Source: a virus (Duplodnaviria > Caudoviricetes). From it: a stretch of DNA of 50,064 bases. Numbering within the stretch: position 1 is the stretch's first letter; each line of letters begins with the position of its first letter. The translations under genes were made by a program, and so were the position numbers. Shown here piece by piece: positions 554 through 46,519 of this stretch. The notes under the pieces are model-generated. The model did not search any database and was not told the DNA's origin. It was given only the letters and a program-made list of their open reading frames with translations. The stretch is taken from positions 1 through 50,064 of the IMG/VR virus record IMGVR_UViG_3300044217_003764, one strand, 5' to 3'.

Positions 554-2082
554 TCGATCGTCAGTACCACGAGGCTCATACGCCCGAAGGCAAACTGGTC
601 CAACGGATCAAGATGGCGCGGTCAGACCGCGATACCGTCGCATCAGCCCTCAACCGATTCTACGAATTGGCGCTGCCGTTCCGTGTTCCGATCAGCAGCA
701 CCGTCTCCCGCAATACCCAAACCCGCATGGAAGAGCAGGAAGACGTCTTCGATGACACGCTGCAGGCGTGCACCCTGGATTTCGGCGCTGAAATGATGGA
801 CCGGTTCACGCCGCACTATAAGCCGTGGGCCAATCTGAAGCCGACAACACAGCTCGGTGACGCTCTGGCCAAAAAGGCCGAGGGCATGATCAGAGACCGC
901 GAGAGGCTGATCTACGAGGCGATCAAGAATTCAGACTTCTACGAGCAGTCCCAGCAGGCGTGGCTTGACCTGGCGGGCTCGAAGGGCGGGATTATTATTC
1001 CGTATTCGAAGAGCGGCAACATCAAGTGCACGCCGATCGTGATGTCGAACCTGCTGGACGACATCGGCCCACATGGGCAACTGGATCTCCGGGCGATGGA
1101 GTTCCTGACCAAGAAGAAACACCTCCAGCACCTGTTCCCCAAAATCAAGATGGAGCCCCACCTGCGCGACATGGGCATCGGGGAAAATCAGGATGTCGTC
1201 GTCGTGCAGGGCAATTACCGCCTGTATGATGGCCCGTTCGACTGGATGTTCTTCGTCAGCATTCAGGGCAAAGTCGTCCAGATGAAAAAGCAGAAGGGTA
1301 TGGGCGCTTGCGCGGTCCATACGCTCCGCTGGTCGGATGCGCCTTTCTCATCGTGGGGGCCAGGGCCAGCCATGACGGCCATGCCTTCCGCGAACGTCCT
1401 GCAAGAACTCGGATACCTGTTCCTGAAGAATCTCGGCAAGCGCGTCGATCCTCCGTTCAGCTATTACGAGGATGGGCTGTTCAATCCCGAGGGGGGAATC
1501 GATGCCGGCATGGCGCTTCCGCGCGATCGCAACTCCGGTGAAGTGCAATGGCTGATCGCAGAGCAGGATCTTGATACAGCCCTGTTCGAGCGAGAGCAGT
1601 TCCGTCTCGCGGTGAAGCGTGCGCTCTTCCAGGACAAGCCGGATCAGACCGGGAAAACCCCGCCGACGGCAACGCAGTGGATCGATGAGCGCGCCATGAC
1701 CGAGCGCCGCCTGCAGCTATCCCGCCTGCGCGTCTACAAGGAATGGGTGCTGCCGATCCTCGATCGCTTCAATCACATTCTGACCATTCGCGGGGATCTG
1801 CCGCCTCTCAGCATCGATGGCGAAATCATCGATGTCTCGTTCGAAAATCCGATCACGAAAACCTCCGATGCAGAAGAGGTCAGCGCCTCGATGCAGCTTG
1901 CGCAGGCTGCGGCCGGGATCTTCGGTGAAGCGTTCCTGGCGAACACCGACGCGGTGAAAACCCTCGAAAACTGGAAGCAGAAGTCCGGCGACAAACTGCT
2001 TGAGTTCAAACCATTCGATGAACAGCCAGAGGGCCTGCAGGGCCTGCTCAGCAACATGCGCAACCTCTCTAACAAGGCATAG
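550..2082 (+). CDS. Portal (head-tail connector) protein, podovirus type
   Basis: 510 aa; WGPGPAMTAMP and TPPTATQWIDER motifs typical of T7 gp8/BPP-1 portals; follows terL on the circle. Confidence 0.9.
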   Translation: MIDRQYHEAHTPEGKLVQRIKMARSDRDTVASALNRFYELALPFRVPISSTVSRNTQTRMEEQEDVFDDTLQACTLDFGAEMMDRFTPHYKPWANLKPTTQLGDALAKKAEGMIRDRERLIYEAIKNSDFYEQSQQAWLDLAGSKGGIIIPYSKSGNIKCTPIVMSNLLDDIGPHGQLDLRAMEFLTKKKHLQHLFPKIKMEPHLRDMGIGENQDVVVVQGNYRLYDGPFDWMFFVSIQGKVVQMKKQKGMGACAVHTLRWSDAPFSSWGPGPAMTAMPSANVLQELGYLFLKNLGKRVDPPFSYYEDGLFNPEGGIDAGMALPRDRNSGEVQWLIAEQDLDTALFEREQFRLAVKRALFQDKPDQTGKTPPTATQWIDERAMTERRLQLSRLRVYKEWVLPILDRFNHILTIRGDLPPLSIDGEIIDVSFENPITKTSDAEEVSASMQLAQAAAGIFGEAFLANTDAVKTLENWKQKSGDKLLEFKPFDEQPEGLQGLLSNMRNLSNKA

Positions 2083-6419: not shown

Positions 6420-8460
6420 TTTTACGGCAGGCGAGGTCGGCCCTGAATTTCTTCAGCGAACCGAAGATGAGCTTCTGAACGAAGCGGCCAGTCGCCTACT
6501 CAACACACTCATCAGCAATGGCGGCGGTGCCCATCGGAGACCGGCAAGCCGTCCTGTTGCATCCACGTCTGGCACGAAGCGCCAACTCGAGGTCTTTGAC
6601 CTGGACGATTCCGATTATCGCCGGATCGTCTTCTCTGCCGGCAAGGTGGAGGTCTTCGACGCGAGCTCACTGCTGCAAACCCTGAGCGGTCCGTGGGTGG
6701 AAGCCGATATTGAGAAGATCACGGTCGCCAATGGCGATGACAAGTTCTTCATCTTCGGCGATTTCGAGACGCAGGAGCTCGCATATTCTGCCGGCGTATT
6801 CTCCATCGGCGCGATCACGTTTGATGACGGCATCGGAAGCGCCGTTCGCCAGCCTTATTGGCGGTATGCAGCCAAGGGAGTGACGCTGCAGCCATCGGCC
6901 ACCACCGGCTCGATCACGCTTGTTGCGTCAGAGAATGTTTTCGTTTCTGGCCATGTCGGTACGAGGTTCCGGTATCTCAACAACGAGATCGAGATCGACA
7001 CAGTTGTAGACGGCAAAAACGCGACGGGGACGGTCATCACGACGCTGTACCCGACGATCACCCTGACGGTGAACAGCACCGCCCCCTTCAAGGTCGGGCA
7101 TATCGTACTCGGCGACACGACCAGCATCGAAGGCCAGGTGGCCGCGGTTGGCTCAGGCACGATCGATGTGACCCTTCGCGCCGGCTATACGTCCTTCGAT
7201 TCGTCAGAAGACATTTCCTCACCAGAGGGCACAGCGACAATCTCGGCCGTCGGATCAACATCGCCCGCTTCAACGACGATCTGGGACGAGCAGATGATCA
7301 GTGCGGTGCGCGGATACCCCAGCACGGGCGCGCTGCACCGCAACCGCCTGATCATGGGTGGGTTCCCGGGCGCGCGCAACGCTGTTGCCGCTTCTGCGGT
7401 TGGGTTCCTCACGGACTTTGATGTCGGCACCGGGGATGACAACGACGCATTCATTGAGGCCCTGGGTGATGATCCGAATGCAGCGATCCGCCATATCATC
7501 GGCGCCGAGCAGCTTATCCTCCTGACTGACCGGAGTTGCTACTACGTGCCGGAAAGTGAGCAGGCGCCGCTGTCTCCGAGCCGCGTGCAATTCCTGCGGA
7601 TCTCACCGGATGGCTCCAAGACCGTGCGGCCGGTGCTGACGCCAGAGGGTGTCGTGTTCACTGACAATGCGAACCGCCTGTTGATCATTGGCGCGACCGG
7701 AAGCGTCCGGGCTTCGTGGTCTGTCTCCGAACTGTCGCTGCTCGCAAGACACCTGATCACTGATCCGGTTCAGCTTGTCTATGTCGACGGGCTTGGCGCG
7801 AGGTCCGAGCGATACCTGATCATTCGGAATTCGGACGGATCTGTGGTGGTCATGAATTACCGTCGCGGCGCGGATCAGATGGGCGCAACCCCCTGGGAGC
7901 CAGCGCCGGGGACTGAATGGCAATCCTTCGCCGCGTGGAAGACCGAACTGTTCTGCGTCCAGGATGGCTTTCTCTGCGACATGGATATGGCCGCGATCAT
8001 GGATGTGCAGTGTGATTACTCGGCATCCTGCCCACTGCTGGCCGGCCGGAGCGTGTATGTCATGCGAGGGCAGCATGTGTGGCAAGGCCCGCTGACCGTG
8101 GACGGATCAGGCAACGTTCCGGGGATTGACCCGGCTGAGGGACTGGCGATTGGGAGTGACTTCGAGGTGGAGATCACGCCTGCGCCGCCGGTTCACAAAC
8201 ATATCGGGCAAGAGCGCCGACGCATTACGCGCGTGATGGTCGATGTTCTGGATACGGGCATGTTCCGCGTTGATGGTGAATTGCGCGTGGGTGGGGACGG
8301 GGCGACCGACATGGGCGCGGAACCACCCCTCATGACCGGCGGTCTCGAGCCCTTTTACATCTGGGGATATGATTTCAATCACATCCCCTCGATCACGCAA
8401 TCCGTCGGGGAGGGCGCGCCGCTCTTCCTGAGATCCCAGACACTTGAGGTGAGTTACTGA
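6391..8460 (+). CDS. Tail tubular protein B / nozzle (T7 gp12-like)
   Basis: Begins MARRRSYRNSFTAGEVGPE; RGYPSTGALHRNRL motif; start moved to ATG 6391. Confidence 0.85.
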   Translation: MARRRSYRNSFTAGEVGPEFLQRTEDELLNEAASRLLNTLISNGGGAHRRPASRPVASTSGTKRQLEVFDLDDSDYRRIVFSAGKVEVFDASSLLQTLSGPWVEADIEKITVANGDDKFFIFGDFETQELAYSAGVFSIGAITFDDGIGSAVRQPYWRYAAKGVTLQPSATTGSITLVASENVFVSGHVGTRFRYLNNEIEIDTVVDGKNATGTVITTLYPTITLTVNSTAPFKVGHIVLGDTTSIEGQVAAVGSGTIDVTLRAGYTSFDSSEDISSPEGTATISAVGSTSPASTTIWDEQMISAVRGYPSTGALHRNRLIMGGFPGARNAVAASAVGFLTDFDVGTGDDNDAFIEALGDDPNAAIRHIIGAEQLILLTDRSCYYVPESEQAPLSPSRVQFLRISPDGSKTVRPVLTPEGVVFTDNANRLLIIGATGSVRASWSVSELSLLARHLITDPVQLVYVDGLGARSERYLIIRNSDGSVVVMNYRRGADQMGATPWEPAPGTEWQSFAAWKTELFCVQDGFLCDMDMAAIMDVQCDYSASCPLLAGRSVYVMRGQHVWQGPLTVDGSGNVPGIDPAEGLAIGSDFEVEITPAPPVHKHIGQERRRITRVMVDVLDTGMFRVDGELRVGGDGATDMGAEPPLMTGGLEPFYIWGYDFNHIPSITQSVGEGAPLFLRSQTLEVSY

Positions 8461-41126: not shown

Positions 41127-41165
41127 AAAAGAAAAGCCCCCGCCGGACGTATCCAGCGGGGGCTT
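41127..41165 (-). terminator. Intrinsic terminator ending the ribozyme operon
   Basis: AAGCCCCCGCTGGA-loop-TCCGGCGGGGGCTT followed by TTCTTTT on minus. Confidence 0.85.
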
Positions 41166-41182
41166 CCTTGTTGGGGACAAGC

Positions 41183-41356
41183 CTAGTTCGTTTTGGCCGG
41201 GCCTTGGGTAGCTGGCACGGGGTCCAGCGCGGCCAGGGCGGCGGTCGCAGATGTCACGCGGGCTTCTACCCGCTCGATGGCTTCGGCCAGACGCTTTGCT
41301 GATGTCTCCAGACGTTCAGCGGCTTTCTCTGCATCCACGAAATTCTTGTTAGCCAT
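41183..41356 (-). CDS. Operon gene 9, 57-aa helical protein
   Basis: CAATGGAGAC SD then ATG (MANKNFVD). Confidence 0.7.
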   Translation of the reverse strand: MANKNFVDAEKAAERLETSAKRLAEAIERVEARVTSATAALAALDPVPATQGPAKTN

Positions 41357-41380
41357 TGTCTTAGTCTCCATTGGTCTATC

Positions 41381-41433
41381 GGTGCACAGCGCACCCGATG
41401 CCCGCCACCCTTGCAGATGGCGGGACACGGCTA
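41381..41433 (-). ncRNA. Structured intergenic RNA motif B, copy 1 (not a hammerhead)
   Basis: TAG-CCGTG-T-[10-bp stem, GCAA loop]-CATCGG-GTGC-GCTGT-GCACC; covaries with copy 2. Confidence 0.6.
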
Positions 41434-41676
41434 GGCTGGTTCGGCTTCGGCCTCTTCCTCCTGCACTTCGGCCTCATAGTTGAAAACCGAAGCGACAAAG
41501 GTGGCTTCAACATTCTCTATCCCTTCAACGTCCGCCAGGTGGCGCAGGTCGCAGGCGAGATCTTTAATCCAGGTGTCGGTATCGTTTGCGTTCGGGCTGT
41601 CGCCGGTGTGGCTGATGTATGTTGCCAGCGCAGCACGAGCCCGTTCCGCACGATCCGCATTTGTCCAAGTGCCCAT
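41431..41676 (-). CDS. Operon gene 8, hypothetical
   Basis: CAATGGAGAC SD; TNADRAERARAAL...IKDLACDLRHLAD. Confidence 0.8.
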   Translation of the reverse strand: MGTWTNADRAERARAALATYISHTGDSPNANDTDTWIKDLACDLRHLADVEGIENVEATFVASVFNYEAEVQEEEAEAEPA

Positions 41677-41695
41677 TTGTGTCTCCATTGATTGT

Positions 41696-41752
41696 GGTGG
41701 AAAAGCCCACCGGATGGCCCTGCTGCCAGTTCAGCAACAGGGCGCACCGCTA
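41696..41752 (-). ncRNA. Structured intergenic RNA motif B, copy 2
   Basis: TAG-CGGTG-C-[12-bp stem]-CATCCG-GTGG-GCTTTT-CCACC. Confidence 0.6.
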
Positions 41753-42295
41753 GGCTCCGGTGCCGACGACTTGCTCGAGTCGGTCAGCTACCGCGTCCAG
41801 GTCTCCCCGATACGTTGGGAAGGCAACAACCTGCGCACCGTCGGTGGCGTAATTGATCACCTCGATGTTCAGGTCGGTTGGGAGTGCAGGGGATTCGGTT
41901 GCCGGTTCTGGCACCTTGTCGCCTGTCATGTAGAGCCACTTGGCCGTGACCGTGGCGAACACAAAGCCCGCCGCCGCCGCGTATTGCATCACGAGCGGGG
42001 TATTGTCCCCGAACAGCCAGAGCGCGCCGTAATGGTGCACCCAGACCTCAACGCAAGCCAGGAAGAAGGCAAAGATGGCCGTGGCCGTTGCTTTCCACTT
42101 GGCAAATCCCGCGCGCATCATGACCAGTTCCAGCGACTCCGAAAGGAGCCATGTGAACGTGGCCAGGAAGCCGAGCAGGACCGCGACACGATCCCAGCCA
42201 AATCCCGCGTGACGTAGGCCGATGGCTGCAATCACGTTGGACATGAGGACGATGGCCACCGGCGCAAGCGTGGTGGCGTTCTGTCTTAGGTTCAT
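41750..42295 (-). CDS. Operon gene 7, multi-pass membrane protein
   Basis: AATGGAGAC SD then MNLRQNA; about 4 hydrophobic segments. Confidence 0.8.
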   Translation of the reverse strand: MNLRQNATTLAPVAIVLMSNVIAAIGLRHAGFGWDRVAVLLGFLATFTWLLSESLELVMMRAGFAKWKATATAIFAFFLACVEVWVHHYGALWLFGDNTPLVMQYAAAAGFVFATVTAKWLYMTGDKVPEPATESPALPTDLNIEVINYATDGAQVVAFPTYRGDLDAVADRLEQVVGTGA

Positions 42296-42318
42296 GGTTG
42301 GTCTCCATTTATTGAGCT

Positions 42319-42372
42319 GTCTCATCAGTGGCGCTTGCTCAAGACGCCAGACCCGCCGGGGCGGGTTTCGAC
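42319..42372 (-). ncRNA. Type II hammerhead ribozyme HH1
   Basis: GUC-GAAA-CCCGCC/GGCGGG-UC^UGGCG/CGCCA-CUGAUGA-GAC; loop I UUGAGC pairs with 3' tail GCUCAA; cleavage 42350/42349. Confidence 0.93.
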
Positions 42373-42584
42373 TAGGTGTCATCCTCCTGTGTTGCGATTT
42401 TGATCAATTCACGCTGTGGGCTGAGTATTGCGCCCAGCAGCAGGAACGCGCCCAGCGTGGCGGCAATGAACACCGCCAGCCCTGCCAGCCCGTGAATCTC
42501 GAATGCAGCAGGCACCATAAGGCTGCAGCAAACAAGGATCACCAGGCCGGACAGAATGCCGGTCAGGCGCATGGGGTCGTTCAT
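42372..42584 (-). CDS. Operon gene 6, two-TM membrane protein
   Basis: CAATGGAGG SD; TAG stop overlaps HH1 stem II. Confidence 0.8.
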   Translation of the reverse strand: MNDPMRLTGILSGLVILVCCSLMVPAAFEIHGLAGLAVFIAATLGAFLLLGAILSPQRELIKIATQEDDT

Positions 42585-42617
42585 GCGGTATCCTCCATTG
42601 GTTTTAGGGTGTGGCCT

Positions 42618-42680
42618 GTCTCATCAGTAGCGAGGGGCCAATCTCGCCAGACCCCACCCCTTGCGGGGTAGGGTTTCGAC
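42618..42680 (-). ncRNA. Type II hammerhead ribozyme HH2
   Basis: Stem III ACCCUACCCC-GCAA-GGGGUGGGGU, C^, stem I UGGCGAG/CUCGCUA, CUGAUGA; pseudoknot UGGCC/GGCCA; cleavage 42650/42649. Confidence 0.95.
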
Positions 42681-43417
42681 TATGCCGCAACCGGCATTTT
42701 CTCCGGTTCTTGCACGATCGCCAGGGGCGCGCCCGTGGTGTCAAACCATTGCGGACGTCCAGAGTCCGCGCCGGCATTGGCACGCAAGGGCATAAGCACG
42801 CCGAACAGGTCGCGCTTACCGTCATCTGCAGGCCCGAACGTCACCAAAGCGGGATCATTCGGCCCCTCACTCCAGATGGAGATCGGGGCAGACCTTTGAT
42901 TGCAGAAGTCTGCAGCGGCCATTGTGAACGCCTTGAGGTAATTGGCGTCATACGTTGACGCCTGCGTCACGGGCTTGCAGTTGGAGAACCGGGGAACGAC
43001 TCGCGTGATGTCTGGAAAGTCTCCGTCTATCACCTCGAACATGTGAGCCCCAACGGGCAGGCGCCCTCCGTTTTCGTCCATGTCGAACAGGAAGCCCGGC
43101 GCGCAACATGACTCGGTATCATCGGGGTTCACCTCGATCATGCGAGTGCCAAGCGTTTTGCGGTCTTCCTTGAACACTGCGCCGGGCAGCTTGTGGCCTT
43201 CCGTTCGCAGGATCACGCCTTTACCGTCCGGCGCGAAGCCGTCCGGATCATAGGCAACAATGAGCTTGTGACCGTCCGTTGCCGCCAGCATCACACCGGG
43301 CTGATTGCCAGGCGCGCGGCTGACGTGAAGCCCATTCAGGTAATAGCGGCTCTTCTCTTTCGAGGTGAACCGATAAACCGTGCGGAAAAGGGCGGCACTA
43401 AAGCGATAATTGGTCAT
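42680..43417 (-). CDS. Operon gene 5, DNA polymerase III beta (sliding clamp)-like protein
   Basis: SRYYLNGL...AATDGHKL and IDGDFPDITRVVP match DnaN central-domain motifs; only 245 aa. Confidence 0.75.
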   Translation of the reverse strand: MTNYRFSAALFRTVYRFTSKEKSRYYLNGLHVSRAPGNQPGVMLAATDGHKLIVAYDPDGFAPDGKGVILRTEGHKLPGAVFKEDRKTLGTRMIEVNPDDTESCCAPGFLFDMDENGGRLPVGAHMFEVIDGDFPDITRVVPRFSNCKPVTQASTYDANYLKAFTMAAADFCNQRSAPISIWSEGPNDPALVTFGPADDGKRDLFGVLMPLRANAGADSGRPQWFDTTGAPLAIVQEPEKMPVAA

Positions 43418-43444
43418 TGTGTAGTCTCCATTGATTGTAACCCT

Positions 43445-43506
43445 GTCTCATCAGTGCAAGGCGGGTTAGGCCCTTGCAGACCCCGGCGCGCGGCCGGGGT
43501 TTCGAC
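43445..43506 (-). ncRNA. Type II hammerhead ribozyme HH3
   Basis: Stem III ACCCCGGC/GCCGGGGU, C^, stem I UGCAAGG/CCUUGCA, CUGAUGA; pseudoknot UAACCC/GGGUUA; cleavage 43479/43478. Confidence 0.95.
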
Positions 43507-43988
43507 TATCCGCGCTTTCGGCGCATCAGGTCAGTGAGGGAAACGACTTGCGGCGTCCCCTCCGGTTCGTCAAAGCCCCAAGGGGCATCGTCGTAACCAG
43601 GAAGTTTCGAGATCATGGATTTTCGCAGTTGCTGCACCCATTTTGCGGCCCAGCGTTCGTGATAATCGTTCGTTTCACATGCCTGATAGTCGTAACAATC
43701 GCAGGCTTTCAGCACGATCACGGGAGTCACGAAGGTTGGGTGAATCCGTCGAAAGGTGTAGCGTTCGATTGCTTCCATCCCTTCCAGGTCGTCACCTTGA
43801 TAGCGGAACAGCACCGAGCGCGTGTTTTCACGCAACAGGGCCTTTCCGAGAGCGTCCGCATCATCCGGGTCGTCACCTTTTGGCGCGCCGGGTAATGTGG
43901 AAAAATACGAGCTGGAAAAGTGGCGATCATCCATAGCTGCTGTTACCAGCAGGCTGATATGATCGTCGCTCACAACAAAAGCGGACAT
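43506..43988 (-). CDS. Operon gene 4, hypothetical phage protein
   Basis: CAATGGAGA SD then MSAFVVSDDHI; ENTRSV..RY and CYDYQACE motifs. Confidence 0.8.
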   Translation of the reverse strand: MSAFVVSDDHISLLVTAAMDDRHFSSSYFSTLPGAPKGDDPDDADALGKALLRENTRSVLFRYQGDDLEGMEAIERYTFRRIHPTFVTPVIVLKACDCYDYQACETNDYHERWAAKWVQQLRKSMISKLPGYDDAPWGFDEPEGTPQVVSLTDLMRRKRG

Positions 43989-44010
43989 AGGTATCTCCAT
44001 TGTTTAGCCT

Positions 44011-44071
44011 GTCTCATCAGACCGCAGGCGGCTAATCCTGCGATGACGCTCCGGTTAGGGAGCGTTTCGAC
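44011..44071 (-). ncRNA. Type II hammerhead ribozyme HH4
   Basis: Stem III ACGCUCC/GGAGCGU, C^, stem I AUCGCAGG/CCUGCGGU, CUGAUGA; pseudoknot UUAGCC/GGCUAA; cleavage 44045/44044. Confidence 0.95.
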
Positions 44072-44289
44072 TATTGGAAATCTTCGAGTCGGTGGCGTAC
44101 CGGCCGCCCATTGATCATGGGAACACCCCAGACCGTGGCCACACCGGCCGCATTGACCAGCGGTAGGTAAATAGGCGCAATTTCCCATGCAGCGCGCTGC
44201 TCTGACACGGTTTCCCATGTCCACCCTTTCGGCAGGTCGTAGCCAATAGGTGCAGCAAGGCACTCGCGTTCCGAGTTCGTGAGTTGCAT
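44071..44289 (-). CDS. Operon gene 3, 72-aa hypothetical
   Basis: CAATGGAGAC SD then MQLTNSERE; TAG overlaps HH4. Confidence 0.75.
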   Translation of the reverse strand: MQLTNSERECLAAPIGYDLPKGWTWETVSEQRAAWEIAPIYLPLVNAAGVATVWGVPMINGRPVRHRLEDFQ

Positions 44290-44317
44290 TTCAGTCTCCA
44301 TTGTATGGGTTTCGCGT

Positions 44318-44372
44318 GTCTCATCAGTGCCAGGCCGCGAGCCCTGACAGACGCCCCGGAGGGCGTTTCGAC
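44318..44372 (-). ncRNA. Type II hammerhead ribozyme HH5
   Basis: Stem III ACGCCC-UCCG-GGGCGU, C^, stem I UGUCAGG/CCUGGCA, CUGAUGA; pseudoknot UCGCG/CGCGA; cleavage 44350/44349. Confidence 0.95.
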
Positions 44373-44374
44373 TA

Positions 44375-44620
44375 TTAGATCGGTTCAAATTCCGCGCACG
44401 GTAGGCGTTCAAAGCCTGAAGGCTTGTGCACCTTCACAAACCGCCATCCGAGGCACTTCAGCACCGCGCGCATTTCATCGCAGGCTTGGTTGTCTCCCTC
44501 GGCGAAGTAGGCGAAGACTCTGCGCGTGACGCCCTCGCCAATCGTCCGAACCCCTCGGCAGGCGATGTCTTGCGCCTTAAATTGCGCCAGCGCTTCGCCC
44601 GGTTTAATTGGGTACGTCAT
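44375..44620 (-). CDS. Operon gene 2, 81-aa hypothetical
   Basis: CAATGGAGA SD then MTYPIKPG; ends TAA-TAG abutting HH5. Confidence 0.75.
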   Translation of the reverse strand: MTYPIKPGEALAQFKAQDIACRGVRTIGEGVTRRVFAYFAEGDNQACDEMRAVLKCLGWRFVKVHKPSGFERLPCAEFEPI

Positions 44621-44651
44621 TAGTTCAATCTCCATTGTAGGTAATTGGCCT

Positions 44652-44708
44652 GTCTCATCAGTGCAGCTAGGCCAGATGCTGCAGACCGGGCCGGAGCCCG
44701 GTTTCGAC
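44652..44708 (-). ncRNA. Type II hammerhead ribozyme HH6
   Basis: Stem III ACCGGGC-UCCG-GCCCGGU, C^, stem I UGCAGC/GCUGCA, CUGAUGA; pseudoknot UGGCC/GGCCA; cleavage 44684/44683. Confidence 0.95.
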
Positions 44709-44878
44709 TAATTGGCGTCTTTCCCGTCATGCCAGTGACCTTGAACCAGGTTCACGGATGCGATGAGGGCAACGGCGACAGCAAGTGCGAATAGAGTTGC
44801 GAAGGGCCACAGGGCCAGCAATGTAGCCATGACCTTCACGCCCATCAGCGCGGCGAGTGCCATAAGTGCAAAACGCAT
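44708..44878 (-). CDS. Operon gene 1, 56-aa hydrophobic peptide (absent from the ORF track)
   Basis: CAATGGAGA SD; MRFALMALAALMGVKVMATLLALWPFATLFALAVAVALIASVNLVQGHWHDGKDAN ends exactly at the TAG of HH6. Confidence 0.75.
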   Translation of the reverse strand: MRFALMALAALMGVKVMATLLALWPFATLFALAVAVALIASVNLVQGHWHDGKDAN

Positions 44879-44904
44879 AATTCAATCTCCATTGAGTGTG
44901 ATCT

Positions 44905-44993
44905 GTCTCTTCAGGCCCAGCGCGATCAATCACCAGGCGACACGGCACGCGCTTAGACATGGGCTGGAGAGGCCCGGCGCGCCGTGTTTCGAC
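44905..44993 (-). ncRNA. Type II hammerhead ribozyme HH7 (5' leader, extended stem III, CUGAAGA core)
   Basis: GUC-GAAA-CACGGC.../...GCCGUG-UC^GCCUGGUG/CGCUGGGC-CUGAAGA-GAC; pseudoknot UGAUC/GAUCA; cleavage 44939/44938. Confidence 0.9.
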
Positions 44994-45048
44994 TTGTCCC
45001 TAACGATGTCAAACAACATGAGCGGGGAAATGAGCCCGTCCCATGCAT

Positions 45049-46444: not shown

Positions 46445-46519
46445 TGTGGGGTGGCGCAGAGGTAGCGCGTCGGTCTCATAATCCGAAGGTCGGAGGTTCG
46501 AATCCTCTCCCTGCACCCA
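46445..46519 (+). tRNA. tRNA with CAU anticodon (fMet-like sequence, atypical identity elements)
   Basis: Cloverleaf: TGTGGGG/CCCTGCA, D stem GCGC, loop CTCATAA, GGAGG-TTCGAAT-CCTCT, encoded CCA. Confidence 0.85.

Follow-up and report, generated by a model that had tools for sequence, protein, structure and literature searches.

The minus strand of this virus record carries a run of small genes, from about position 44880 down to 41183, that is punctuated by five type II hammerheads, and the last two junctions of the operon are filled by two copies of a motif that are not hammerheads. What this motif is, whether it belongs to a wider family, and what it might do in a slot that hammerheads occupy at the other junctions are the questions that the locus raises. 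The original prediction, made from the letters, suggested that the two copies, an unrecognised structured RNA motif, are a processing element, either an RNase III-type site or an undescribed self-cleaving RNA. The window (the whole stretch of DNA that was analysed) is the complete virus record of 50064 bases, and the motif copies in this record are these two only. Hammerheads were called with the Rfam covariance model (gathering score 37), and the five scored 38.8-45.9 bits:

42610..42681, minus strand: type II hammerhead, at the junction upstream of the motif copies, 43.7 bits
43437..43507, minus strand: type II hammerhead, 38.8 bits
44003..44072, minus strand: type II hammerhead, 44.8 bits
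44310..44373, minus strand: type II hammerhead, 45.9 bits
44644..44709, minus strand: type II hammerhead, 41.9 bits

Each of these five has a UAG stop at its start (UAGUCGAAAC) and the ribosome-binding site CAAUGGAGA after its end. The neighbouring proteins in the window are small and mostly without assigned function.

Two copies of the motif in the window

Both copies were present on the minus strand exactly as the original prediction had written them, with copy 1 running from its UAG at 41433-41431 to GCACC at 41385-41381, and copy 2 from its UAG at 41752-41750 to CCACC at 41700-41696. When the bases before the UAG are included, copy 2 reads GGAGCC UAG CGGUG C (stem B) CAUCCG GUGG GCUUUU CCACC (41758-41696) and copy 1 reads CAGCC UAG CCGUG U (stem B) CAUCGG GUGC GCUGU GCACC (41438-41381). 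We numbered the motif so that the UAG occupies positions 13-15, CGGUG 16-20, the bulge N21 and CAUCCG 49-54, with GGUG ending at 57; X denotes the six bases before the UAG, and X' the bases after GGUG. The parts of the two elements, and the ribosome-binding sites beside them, are the following:

41696..41758, minus strand: whole element of motif copy 2, first in the transcript, separating the 210-aa membrane protein gene from the 85-aa gene; 61.8 bits with covariance model R1
41753..41758, minus strand: copy 2 segment X (GGAGCC), in the last codons of the upstream gene; pairs with GGCUUU after GGUG in a run of 6 pairs
41750..41752, minus strand: copy 2 UAG (positions 13-15), stop codon of the 210-aa gene
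41744..41749, minus strand: copy 2 helix A 5' strand (CGGUG) and bulged N21 (C), from sequence and folding
41717..41743, minus strand: hairpin B of copy 2, the variable upper hairpin, with about 11-12 bp in its stem, from sequence and folding
41711..41716, minus strand: copy 2 helix A 3' strand (CAUCCG) with bulged U51, from sequence and folding
41696..41711, minus strand: hairpin C of copy 2 (GGUGG, loop GCUUUU, CCACC), whose 5' strand and loop double as the 3' strand of the long hairpin
41681..41690, minus strand: ribosome-binding site CAAUGGAGAC of the 85-aa gene; context, outside the motif
41381..41438, minus strand: whole element of motif copy 1, separating the 85-aa gene from the 57-aa gene; 62.1 bits with R1
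41434..41438, minus strand: copy 1 segment X (CAGCC), whose CAGC forms a run of 4 pairs with GCUG of the hairpin C loop
41431..41433, minus strand: copy 1 UAG, stop codon of the 85-aa gene
41425..41430, minus strand: copy 1 helix A 5' strand (CCGUG) and bulged N21 (U), from sequence and folding
41401..41424, minus strand: copy 1 upper hairpin B, 10 bp with a GCAA loop, from sequence and folding
41395..41400, minus strand: copy 1 helix A 3' strand (CAUCGG) with bulged U51, from sequence and folding
41381..41395, minus strand: copy 1 hairpin C (GGUGC, loop GCUGU, GCACC), from sequence and folding
41364..41373, minus strand: ribosome-binding site CAAUGGAGAC of the 57-aa gene; context, outside the motif

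The two copies had been described as sharing a basal helix with a compensatory change (CCG/CGG in one, CGG/CCG in the other), upper stems that are unrelated and yet paired, and a second hairpin that changes from GUGC/GCAC to GUGG/CCAC, and all three of these features were seen in both copies. It was also correct that the same ribosome-binding site follows both copies; however, CAAUGGAGA serves the whole operon, and because it follows the five hammerheads too, it belongs to the operon and is not a part of the motif.

The pattern TAGCSGTG-N(18-40)-CATCSGGTGSGCT matched twice in the window, against a mean of 0.00 in 100 dinucleotide-preserving shuffles, and a backwards-read control of the shared pattern gave 0 matches in the window. 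The fold with two hairpins was the minimum-free-energy fold of both bare elements. For copy 2 this fold had -33.6 kcal/mol (z -3.87), and none of 200 shuffles was equally good; the fold of copy 1 was weaker (-30.5 kcal/mol, z -1.99), with 8 of 200 shuffles equally good.

Comparison with known RNA families

The statement that the motif lacks a hammerhead core was borne out, as the motif region had no hammerhead match at E values up to 10 with the models of Rfam clan CL00010. When the window copies were scanned against Rfam 15, no family matched them, and the models of the pistol, hatchet, twister, twister-sister, HDV-like and hairpin ribozymes gave no match in 41300-41800 at E up to 10. The only Rfam matches in that interval at this threshold were to L25 leader on stem B (E 0.2), to sar on the opposite strand and to Lacto-phage-1 (E 9.3), and four further loci with nine copies had no overlapping Rfam match at E up to 1. 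The strand order of the motif (X, A, B, B', A', C, X', C') presumably fits none of the pistol, hatchet, twister, twister-sister or HDV-like ribozymes. Like the motif, these five are small RNAs with a defined structure that frequently occur close to hammerheads in DNA of phage-like kind, but none of their Rfam models matches the motif.

In the parts covered of the literature on phage and prophage ribozymes and on intercistronic RNase III processing, we found no description of the motif, which may nevertheless be among the supplementary candidate motifs of earlier ribozyme surveys (including PMC5737381). The core written in RNA letters was found in no publication, and its DNA-letter forms, among the matches listed, only in unrelated papers. 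The family described below is apparently unlisted and merits a family entry, as genome annotation now leaves such junctions blank.

Relatives of the motif

Relatives were sought by five exact-pattern scans and then with a covariance model. A loose pattern gave at least 120 viral loci, mostly chance matches among the matches listed, while a complete scan with a strict pattern gave 13 viral loci, all of which had the stem and all of which had TAG. With TAA or TGA substituted for TAG, this core occurred in 20 viral loci, none of which had both the hairpin and the contact between X and X', and the core with no triplet requirement occurred in at least 120 loci, where the true motifs among the matches listed all carried TAG. 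In the genome collection, the matches listed included locus L351 and a Filomicrobium MAG contig (L261) with five tandem motif copies spaced by about 305 nt; a complete scan of the metagenome collection gave 71 loci. The covariance model R1, built from 12 copies, picked up copies in the same operons that the patterns had missed, including 7 more in locus L386, which carries 8 copies in all on one strand, the most at any locus. At E up to 1e-6, R1 gave 59 matches in 38 sources, of which 55 were distinct (alignment A5). Pattern scans and the covariance model together gave these 55 distinct relatives, which show covariation, and the two copies of the window belong to a genuine RNA family with two competing, covarying folds that lies at gene ends in phage operons.

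We compared all 2355 open reading frames of 45 loci with each other, and no protein cluster was common to the groups of loci. The largest cluster covered 18 of the 45 loci, all in one group, the hammerhead-bearing group had its own clusters of 9 loci, and the two largest locus groups had no protein family in common. We therefore rejected a phage-encoded partner protein, as no cluster spans the contexts; since no protein family is common to all of the gene contexts, the partner of the motif would be either the RNA itself or a factor of the host. In the core, about 17 bases are the same across phages with unrelated genes, and part of this identity stems from the exact-pattern searching. U19, U51, C52 and G57 are kept in the divergent copies too, with L389:525-594, which was not confidently alignable, left aside.

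The motif occurs without hammerheads in other phages. Same-strand hammerheads lie upstream of it in five to six loci besides the window, with counts of four in L010, one in L101, two in L410, one in L411 and one in L424. A second, unrelated RNA element thus sits in the hammerhead slots of the same operons and stands alone elsewhere. Among the loci collected, no gene family had a hammerhead before it in one locus and the motif in another; this comparison gave 8 cross hits, all of which were the gene between hammerhead and motif. Cultured phages had no DNA match to the operon (41150-45000). Two public runs matched it, both as contigs, one of RNA and the other of an unrecorded kind; contigs covered none of 41150-41653, and 41654-41779 was covered only from the run of unrecorded kind, the contigs of the RNA run including a part of the operon but not the motif.

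Covariation and the long hairpin

Alignment A5 gave covariation support to three helices (the variable upper stem B, hairpin C, and the pairing of X with X'), with the caution that kinship among the sequences inflates all of these counts. Stem B had full support: for helix A and stem B taken together, 99.8% of cells were paired, and two-sided changes occur at 6 of the 9 pairs. For hairpin C (54-58 with 70-74) the values were 98.5% and 3 of 5 pairs, with the change of G55 to C accompanied by that of C73 to G in 8 sequences, and hairpin C is under selection. The original prediction had suggested that GCU in the loop of the second hairpin could pair with AGC at the stop codon, and this contact proved to be real: in the 55 distinct relatives X:X' was paired in 79.7% of cells, and all 6 of its pairs change on both sides. 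Because R1 lacked X:X', the alignment was not fitted to it. Four or more consecutive X/X' pairs formed in 23 of the 32 distinct cognate combinations, compared to 73 of 964 non-cognate ones, while the other 9 of the 32 had a lower stem that was weak or lay out of register. Real selection on the contact is suggested by the sheer variety of X/X' sequences.

X:X' continues helix A without a gap (12-58, 13-57, 14-56, 15-55, 16-54, 17-53, 18-52), and since the two are in register, they make up one long imperfect hairpin. When it was evaluated as one helix of 20 pairs, 87.2% of cells were paired, relative to 68.1% after shuffling; none of 500 shuffles reached 87.2%, and slid controls were 25-51% paired. 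The total length had a median of 21 bp and was 20-24 bp in 44 of the 55 copies. With flanks included, the minimum-free-energy fold of both window copies was this long hairpin, in which the UAG of copy 2 has U13 opposite G57, A14 paired with U56, and G15 opposite G55.

Divergent copies change in ways that preserve the long helix. Pair 16-54, canonically C-G, is U-A in 7 of the L386 copies and in L047:13656-13727, and 17-53 covaries within the core between G-C and C-G. At 15-55 we observed G.G in 46 copies, G-C in 8 and C-G in 1 of 55, and most L386 copies also carry a Watson-Crick pair there; 13-57 is U.G in 52 of 55 and C-G in 3, and 14-56 turns to G.U in divergent copies. One copy (L060:5-81) has an extra pair (CGGG/CCCG), and in another (L386:9291-9345) the change of A50 to G leaves U19 paired. 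The only constant irregularities of the long hairpin are two bulges, U51 (bulged in 55 of 55 copies) and N21, which may be any base (A 22, U 24, C 8, G 1); these lie on opposite strands with 2 bp between them in all 55 copies.

These observations bear on the possibility that a sequence-specific protein other than RNase III, either a host endonuclease or an RNA-binding regulator, recognises the CGGUG/CAUCCG helix and its bulges. The identical core bases in phages with unrelated genes are more than RNase III is said to need, and the factor would have to be the host's, given that no phage protein is common to all contexts. However, no candidate protein was identified, and the core pairs themselves covary (16-54 from C-G to U-A, 17-53 from G-C to C-G), which fits recognition of shape better than of sequence. 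We regard this explanation as improbable.

Shuffling of genes at the motif

A comparison of the window with L010 showed one extra unit in the window, consisting of the motif and the 85-aa gene; in L010 the motif and a homologue of the 57-aa gene come straight after the gene for the membrane protein. Relatives of the 85-aa protein were found in only 1 distant locus. In loci L239 and L381 an X from one subfamily is combined with an X' from a different subfamily, with loss of pairing. These recombinants and the extra unit of the window show shuffling at the element, as would be expected if the motif were a DNA-level boundary for gene-cassette shuffling, with its conserved core serving as a short homology patch or a recombination site. 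Nevertheless, we consider such a boundary very improbable. Compensatory changes keep the helices, which would be needless for a homology patch, and G.U pairs are frequent in all helices on the sense strand, which points to a sense-strand RNA; despite the shuffling, both features point to RNA. No recombinase is common to the loci, and the shuffling may be a mere by-product of the conserved core.

Integron attC sites have conserved inverse core sites and a neighbouring integron integrase. The conserved core of the motif in A5 is not known to resemble the attC core, and an attC-type site was rejected, since no recombinase or other protein was common to the 45 loci.

Two competing states

Hairpin C and the long hairpin draw on the same bases. 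The loop of hairpin C has 5-6 nt in 39 of the 55 copies, X' uses 4-6 nt of this loop, and in L427 and L408:2789-2865 X' overlaps even the stem of hairpin C. In partition-function calculations (n=53), the predicted unpaired probability of the 3' strand of hairpin C was 0.50 for the complete RNA, as against 0.12 with X through G20 kept single-stranded. One copy (L047:13656-13727) has A at position 54, and both of its partners, 16 in the long hairpin and 74 in hairpin C, are now U. We rejected an H-type pseudoknot because the loop leaves at most 1 base to span a helix of 4-6 bp, which we judged too short by geometric reasoning and not from a model, and folding predicts a trade-off. The RNA is accordingly predicted to be bistable, with the long hairpin and hairpin C mutually exclusive states and not simultaneous tertiary partners.

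Relation of the motif to genes

The original prediction had both copies starting at the UAG stop of the upstream gene. This held in the window, but in the family it applied to only 14 of the 55 members, where the longest upstream open reading frame ended exactly at the motif triplet (UAG in 52 copies and CAG in 3). In 37 of 55 this reading frame ended within X, 3-11 nt short of the triplet and frequently not in phase with the UAG, and in 4 of 55 elsewhere; taken together, the end of the upstream gene coincides with the UAG or precedes it by 3-11 nt in 51 of 55. As few reading frames end exactly at the UAG, the triplet is a part of the RNA element, which the group of the window also uses as a stop codon. 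Downstream, a Shine-Dalgarno sequence and a start codon follow hairpin C in 53 of 55 copies, with the start codon 12-29 nt from the hairpin in 50 of these.

The predicted accessibility of this downstream ribosome-binding site was 0.60 in one state and 0.60 in the other (n=53), and a switch that works by occlusion of the ribosome-binding site was therefore rejected on prediction. A terminator was rejected because neither hairpin is followed by a U tract, and a stimulator of read-through or frameshifting because the stop codon is inside the 5' strand and not ahead of the structure.

The position of the stop codon could also suit a bistable hairpin that is never cut and that blocks 3'-to-5' exonucleases, prevents Rho loading, or reports on upstream translation. 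Such a role would be consistent with a stable, G+C-rich hairpin between cistrons; as 51 of 55 copies have the stop inside the 5' strand or immediately ahead of it, each terminating ribosome would turn the RNA from one fold to the other, and hairpin C is the predicted outcome of blocking the 5' strand. However, the equal accessibility of the ribosome-binding site in the two states leaves no switch output visible, and a plain barrier hairpin needs neither a conserved core nor a selected alternative hairpin. We consider a never-cut element to be quite unlikely.

A candidate processing site

The proposal that a processing element occupies the hammerhead slot is plausible, since the motif lies in the same slot as the hammerheads, in the window with a UAG stop at its start and the same ribosome-binding site after it. 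Type II hammerheads clustered in prophage operons are described by Perreault et al. 2011 (PMC3088659), and the hammerheads of the window and the motif resemble each other in starting at a UAG stop and preceding the same ribosome-binding site. The motif differs from them in lacking the hammerhead core, and in forming one hairpin with an alternative 3' hairpin instead of a three-way junction.

One form of this proposal is that the motif is a new class of self-cleaving ribozyme. Its active fold would be a compact one, built from the A/B hairpin together with hairpin C and an X:X' contact that is partial; it would cut itself, perhaps at the bulged U51 or near the UAG, and so take on the task of the neighbouring hammerheads. 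The slot shared with type II hammerheads within one operon, the position downstream of hammerheads in five other loci, and the constant, bulged U51 would all agree with this, as would the lack of a matching Rfam family. A conserved core in contexts without a common protein, joined to variable, covarying helices, is the pattern of small ribozymes, and earlier new classes, according to PMC5737381, came from searches near hammerhead- and twister-associated genes. On the other hand, the loop of hairpin C is mostly consumed by X', so that by geometric reasoning both helices are not complete together and no stable tertiary fold is evident. The non-canonical positions also vary, with G15.G55 replaced by Watson-Crick pairs in 9 of 55 copies and in most L386 copies and U13.G57 by C-G in 3, and the constant remainder, a helix with two one-base bulges, offers very little for an active site. 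On balance we think a new ribozyme class rather unlikely. It is doubtful to the same degree that a new small ribozyme is used interchangeably with type II hammerheads to punctuate operons, with the long hairpin as an off-state from which it would be freed by the terminating ribosome, tying cleavage to upstream translation.

The anatomy of the motif leans to an RNase III-type site over a self-cleaving RNA, as the contact between loop and stop codon runs on in register from the basal helix to give a hairpin of roughly 21 bp, hairpin C competes with that fold instead of joining it as a tertiary partner, and the irregular U13.G57 and G15.G55 are replaced by ordinary pairs in variants. We tentatively propose, with somewhat less than even confidence, that the motif is a processing site for a host RNase III-type enzyme and that the downstream product refolds into a 5'-terminal hairpin. 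One review of RNase III (PMC3867540) describes an idealised substrate of 22 bp, or two helical turns, in which two cuts across the minor groove produce 3' overhangs of 2 nt; where the target has bulges, loops or mismatches, only a single strand is cut, and stabilising 3' hairpins are left, and proximal boxes in cellular substrates are degenerate. The long hairpin, by its median length and by the 44 of 55 copies that fall at 20-24 bp, agrees with a length of about two turns, and its two bulges, 2 bp apart on opposite strands, may fit the 2-nt stagger of the two cuts.

According to this RNase III model, segment X, the UAG, helix A (CGGUG/CAUCCG) and stem B would stack in the primary transcript as an imperfect hairpin of about 21 bp, which a host double-strand-specific endonuclease of the RNase III type would cut at or beside the bulges. 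The cut would separate the cistrons, which is the same job as that of the type II hammerheads at other junctions. Cuts at G20/N21 and A50/U51 would give classical RNase III ends, and the downstream RNA would then begin with U51-C52-C53, with hairpin C directly after, some 3 nt behind the newly made 5' end. After loss of the 5' strand, or while a terminating ribosome occupies it, the freed 3' strand (GGUGS...) would refold as hairpin C, which would shield the new 5' end of the downstream mRNA. If the 3' strand alone were cut, stem B would remain as a 3' hairpin on the upstream mRNA. Refolding of the downstream product into hairpin C would explain why a fold that competes with the substrate is conserved.

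Several observations stand against the RNase III model. As proximal boxes are degenerate according to the review cited, RNase III alone does not explain some 17 identical core bases; the upstream stop lies inside the 5' strand in 51 of 55 copies, so that terminating ribosomes must melt the proposed substrate; and 9 of the 32 X/X' types pair poorly.

Comparison with processing sites of other phages and with leader hairpins

The early genes of phage T7 carry RNase III processing signals (R sites) between cistrons. Like these sites, the motif is an imperfect hairpin that spans about two turns, lies between cistrons of a phage transcript and is distorted where the cut would be. At such sites, by the substrate rules of PMC3867540, single-strand cutting leaves a 3' hairpin that stabilises the upstream RNA, and the same is proposed for the motif. 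This likeness is one of layout, and the motif differs in having a core that is common to phages without a common flanking protein family, a 5' strand that overlaps the end of the upstream gene, and a second, competing conserved hairpin.

If a host nuclease cuts the motif, the purpose of the hammerheads in such operons would be ordinary cistron separation, which is directly testable; if the motif cuts itself, it would be a new ribozyme class. Either way, the motif is a small RNA module with two states, represented by about 55 natural variants, and could serve as a gene insulator in synthetic operons.

Stem-loops at the 5' terminus protect bacterial mRNAs, as in the ompA leader. Hairpin C would resemble these in lying about 3 nt from the proposed new 5' end, at a distance of 12-30 nt from the start codon, and a similar role may be suggested for it. 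As a separate observation, the downstream RNA that a hammerhead leaves at the other junctions also has a hairpin (stem I) at its start.

Junctions and start codons of the window operon

Each of the five type II hammerheads in the window operon (UAGUCGAAAC; window 42610-44709, minus strand) opens with the UAG that terminates the gene before it, so that a UAG stop is overlapped by every junction element of this operon, whether hammerhead or motif (the bistable intercistronic RNA element). The operon-wide ribosome-binding site CAAUGGAGA, present on the minus strand at window 41364-41373 and 41681-41690 as well as after each hammerhead, has an AUG within it, and mechanical ORF calls consequently begin 4-6 codons too early (MET.., MEI..). 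The true start codon of these genes is probably the next AUG, located 5-8 nt 3' of GGAGA.

In the public RNA sequencing run X1, a metatranscriptome contig from a relative (contig record 3; 18 differences in 493 bases) spans window 42972-43464 and ends at 43464, within the hammerhead at 43437-43507. One contig end of this kind is insufficient as evidence of cleavage.

Neighbouring genes

Two further genes of the window were annotated:

42680-43417, minus strand, gene for a 245-aa protein, flanked by two hammerheads
46445-46516, plus strand, tRNA gene (61 bits), about 1.5 kb past the start of the hammerhead operon

The 245-aa protein matched PHROG 3007, labelled RusA-like resolvase (E 6e-22). 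A second match, to PHROG 947 (E 1.4e-05), is to a DNA polymerase processivity factor, and the central domain of the beta-clamp gave a weak Pfam match below threshold; these labels are in conflict. The tRNA gene may be an integration site.

Variation among motif relatives at other loci

Two of the motif relatives found at other loci (L239:3174-3245 and L381:2326-2396) join segment X, which precedes the UAG, from one subfamily (GGACCA) to the X' loop bases of another (CAAUCA), and the X:X' pairing is absent from both. This mixing of subfamilies with loss of pairing suggests recombination inside the conserved core of the motif. Identical copies also lie on opposite strands of the 1504-base contig L409, at 601-671 (plus) and 834-904 (minus), a pair that is probably an inverted-repeat assembly artefact.

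In L386 2921-10398 (minus strand; GCGCCAC GGUG GUGGCGC), L261:68-147 and L351:6567-6642, hairpin C is separated from the Shine-Dalgarno sequence by a third conserved hairpin, possibly an additional module of the element. On the minus strand of L261, a TAGGGCGTTTTGCCCT-like sequence is repeated three times 5' of a five-copy motif operon, at about 6500-6630 when numbered on the reverse complement; the repeats look like operators. The first motif copy in L261 has CAG in place of UAG and is situated about 60 nt downstream of the first small gene.
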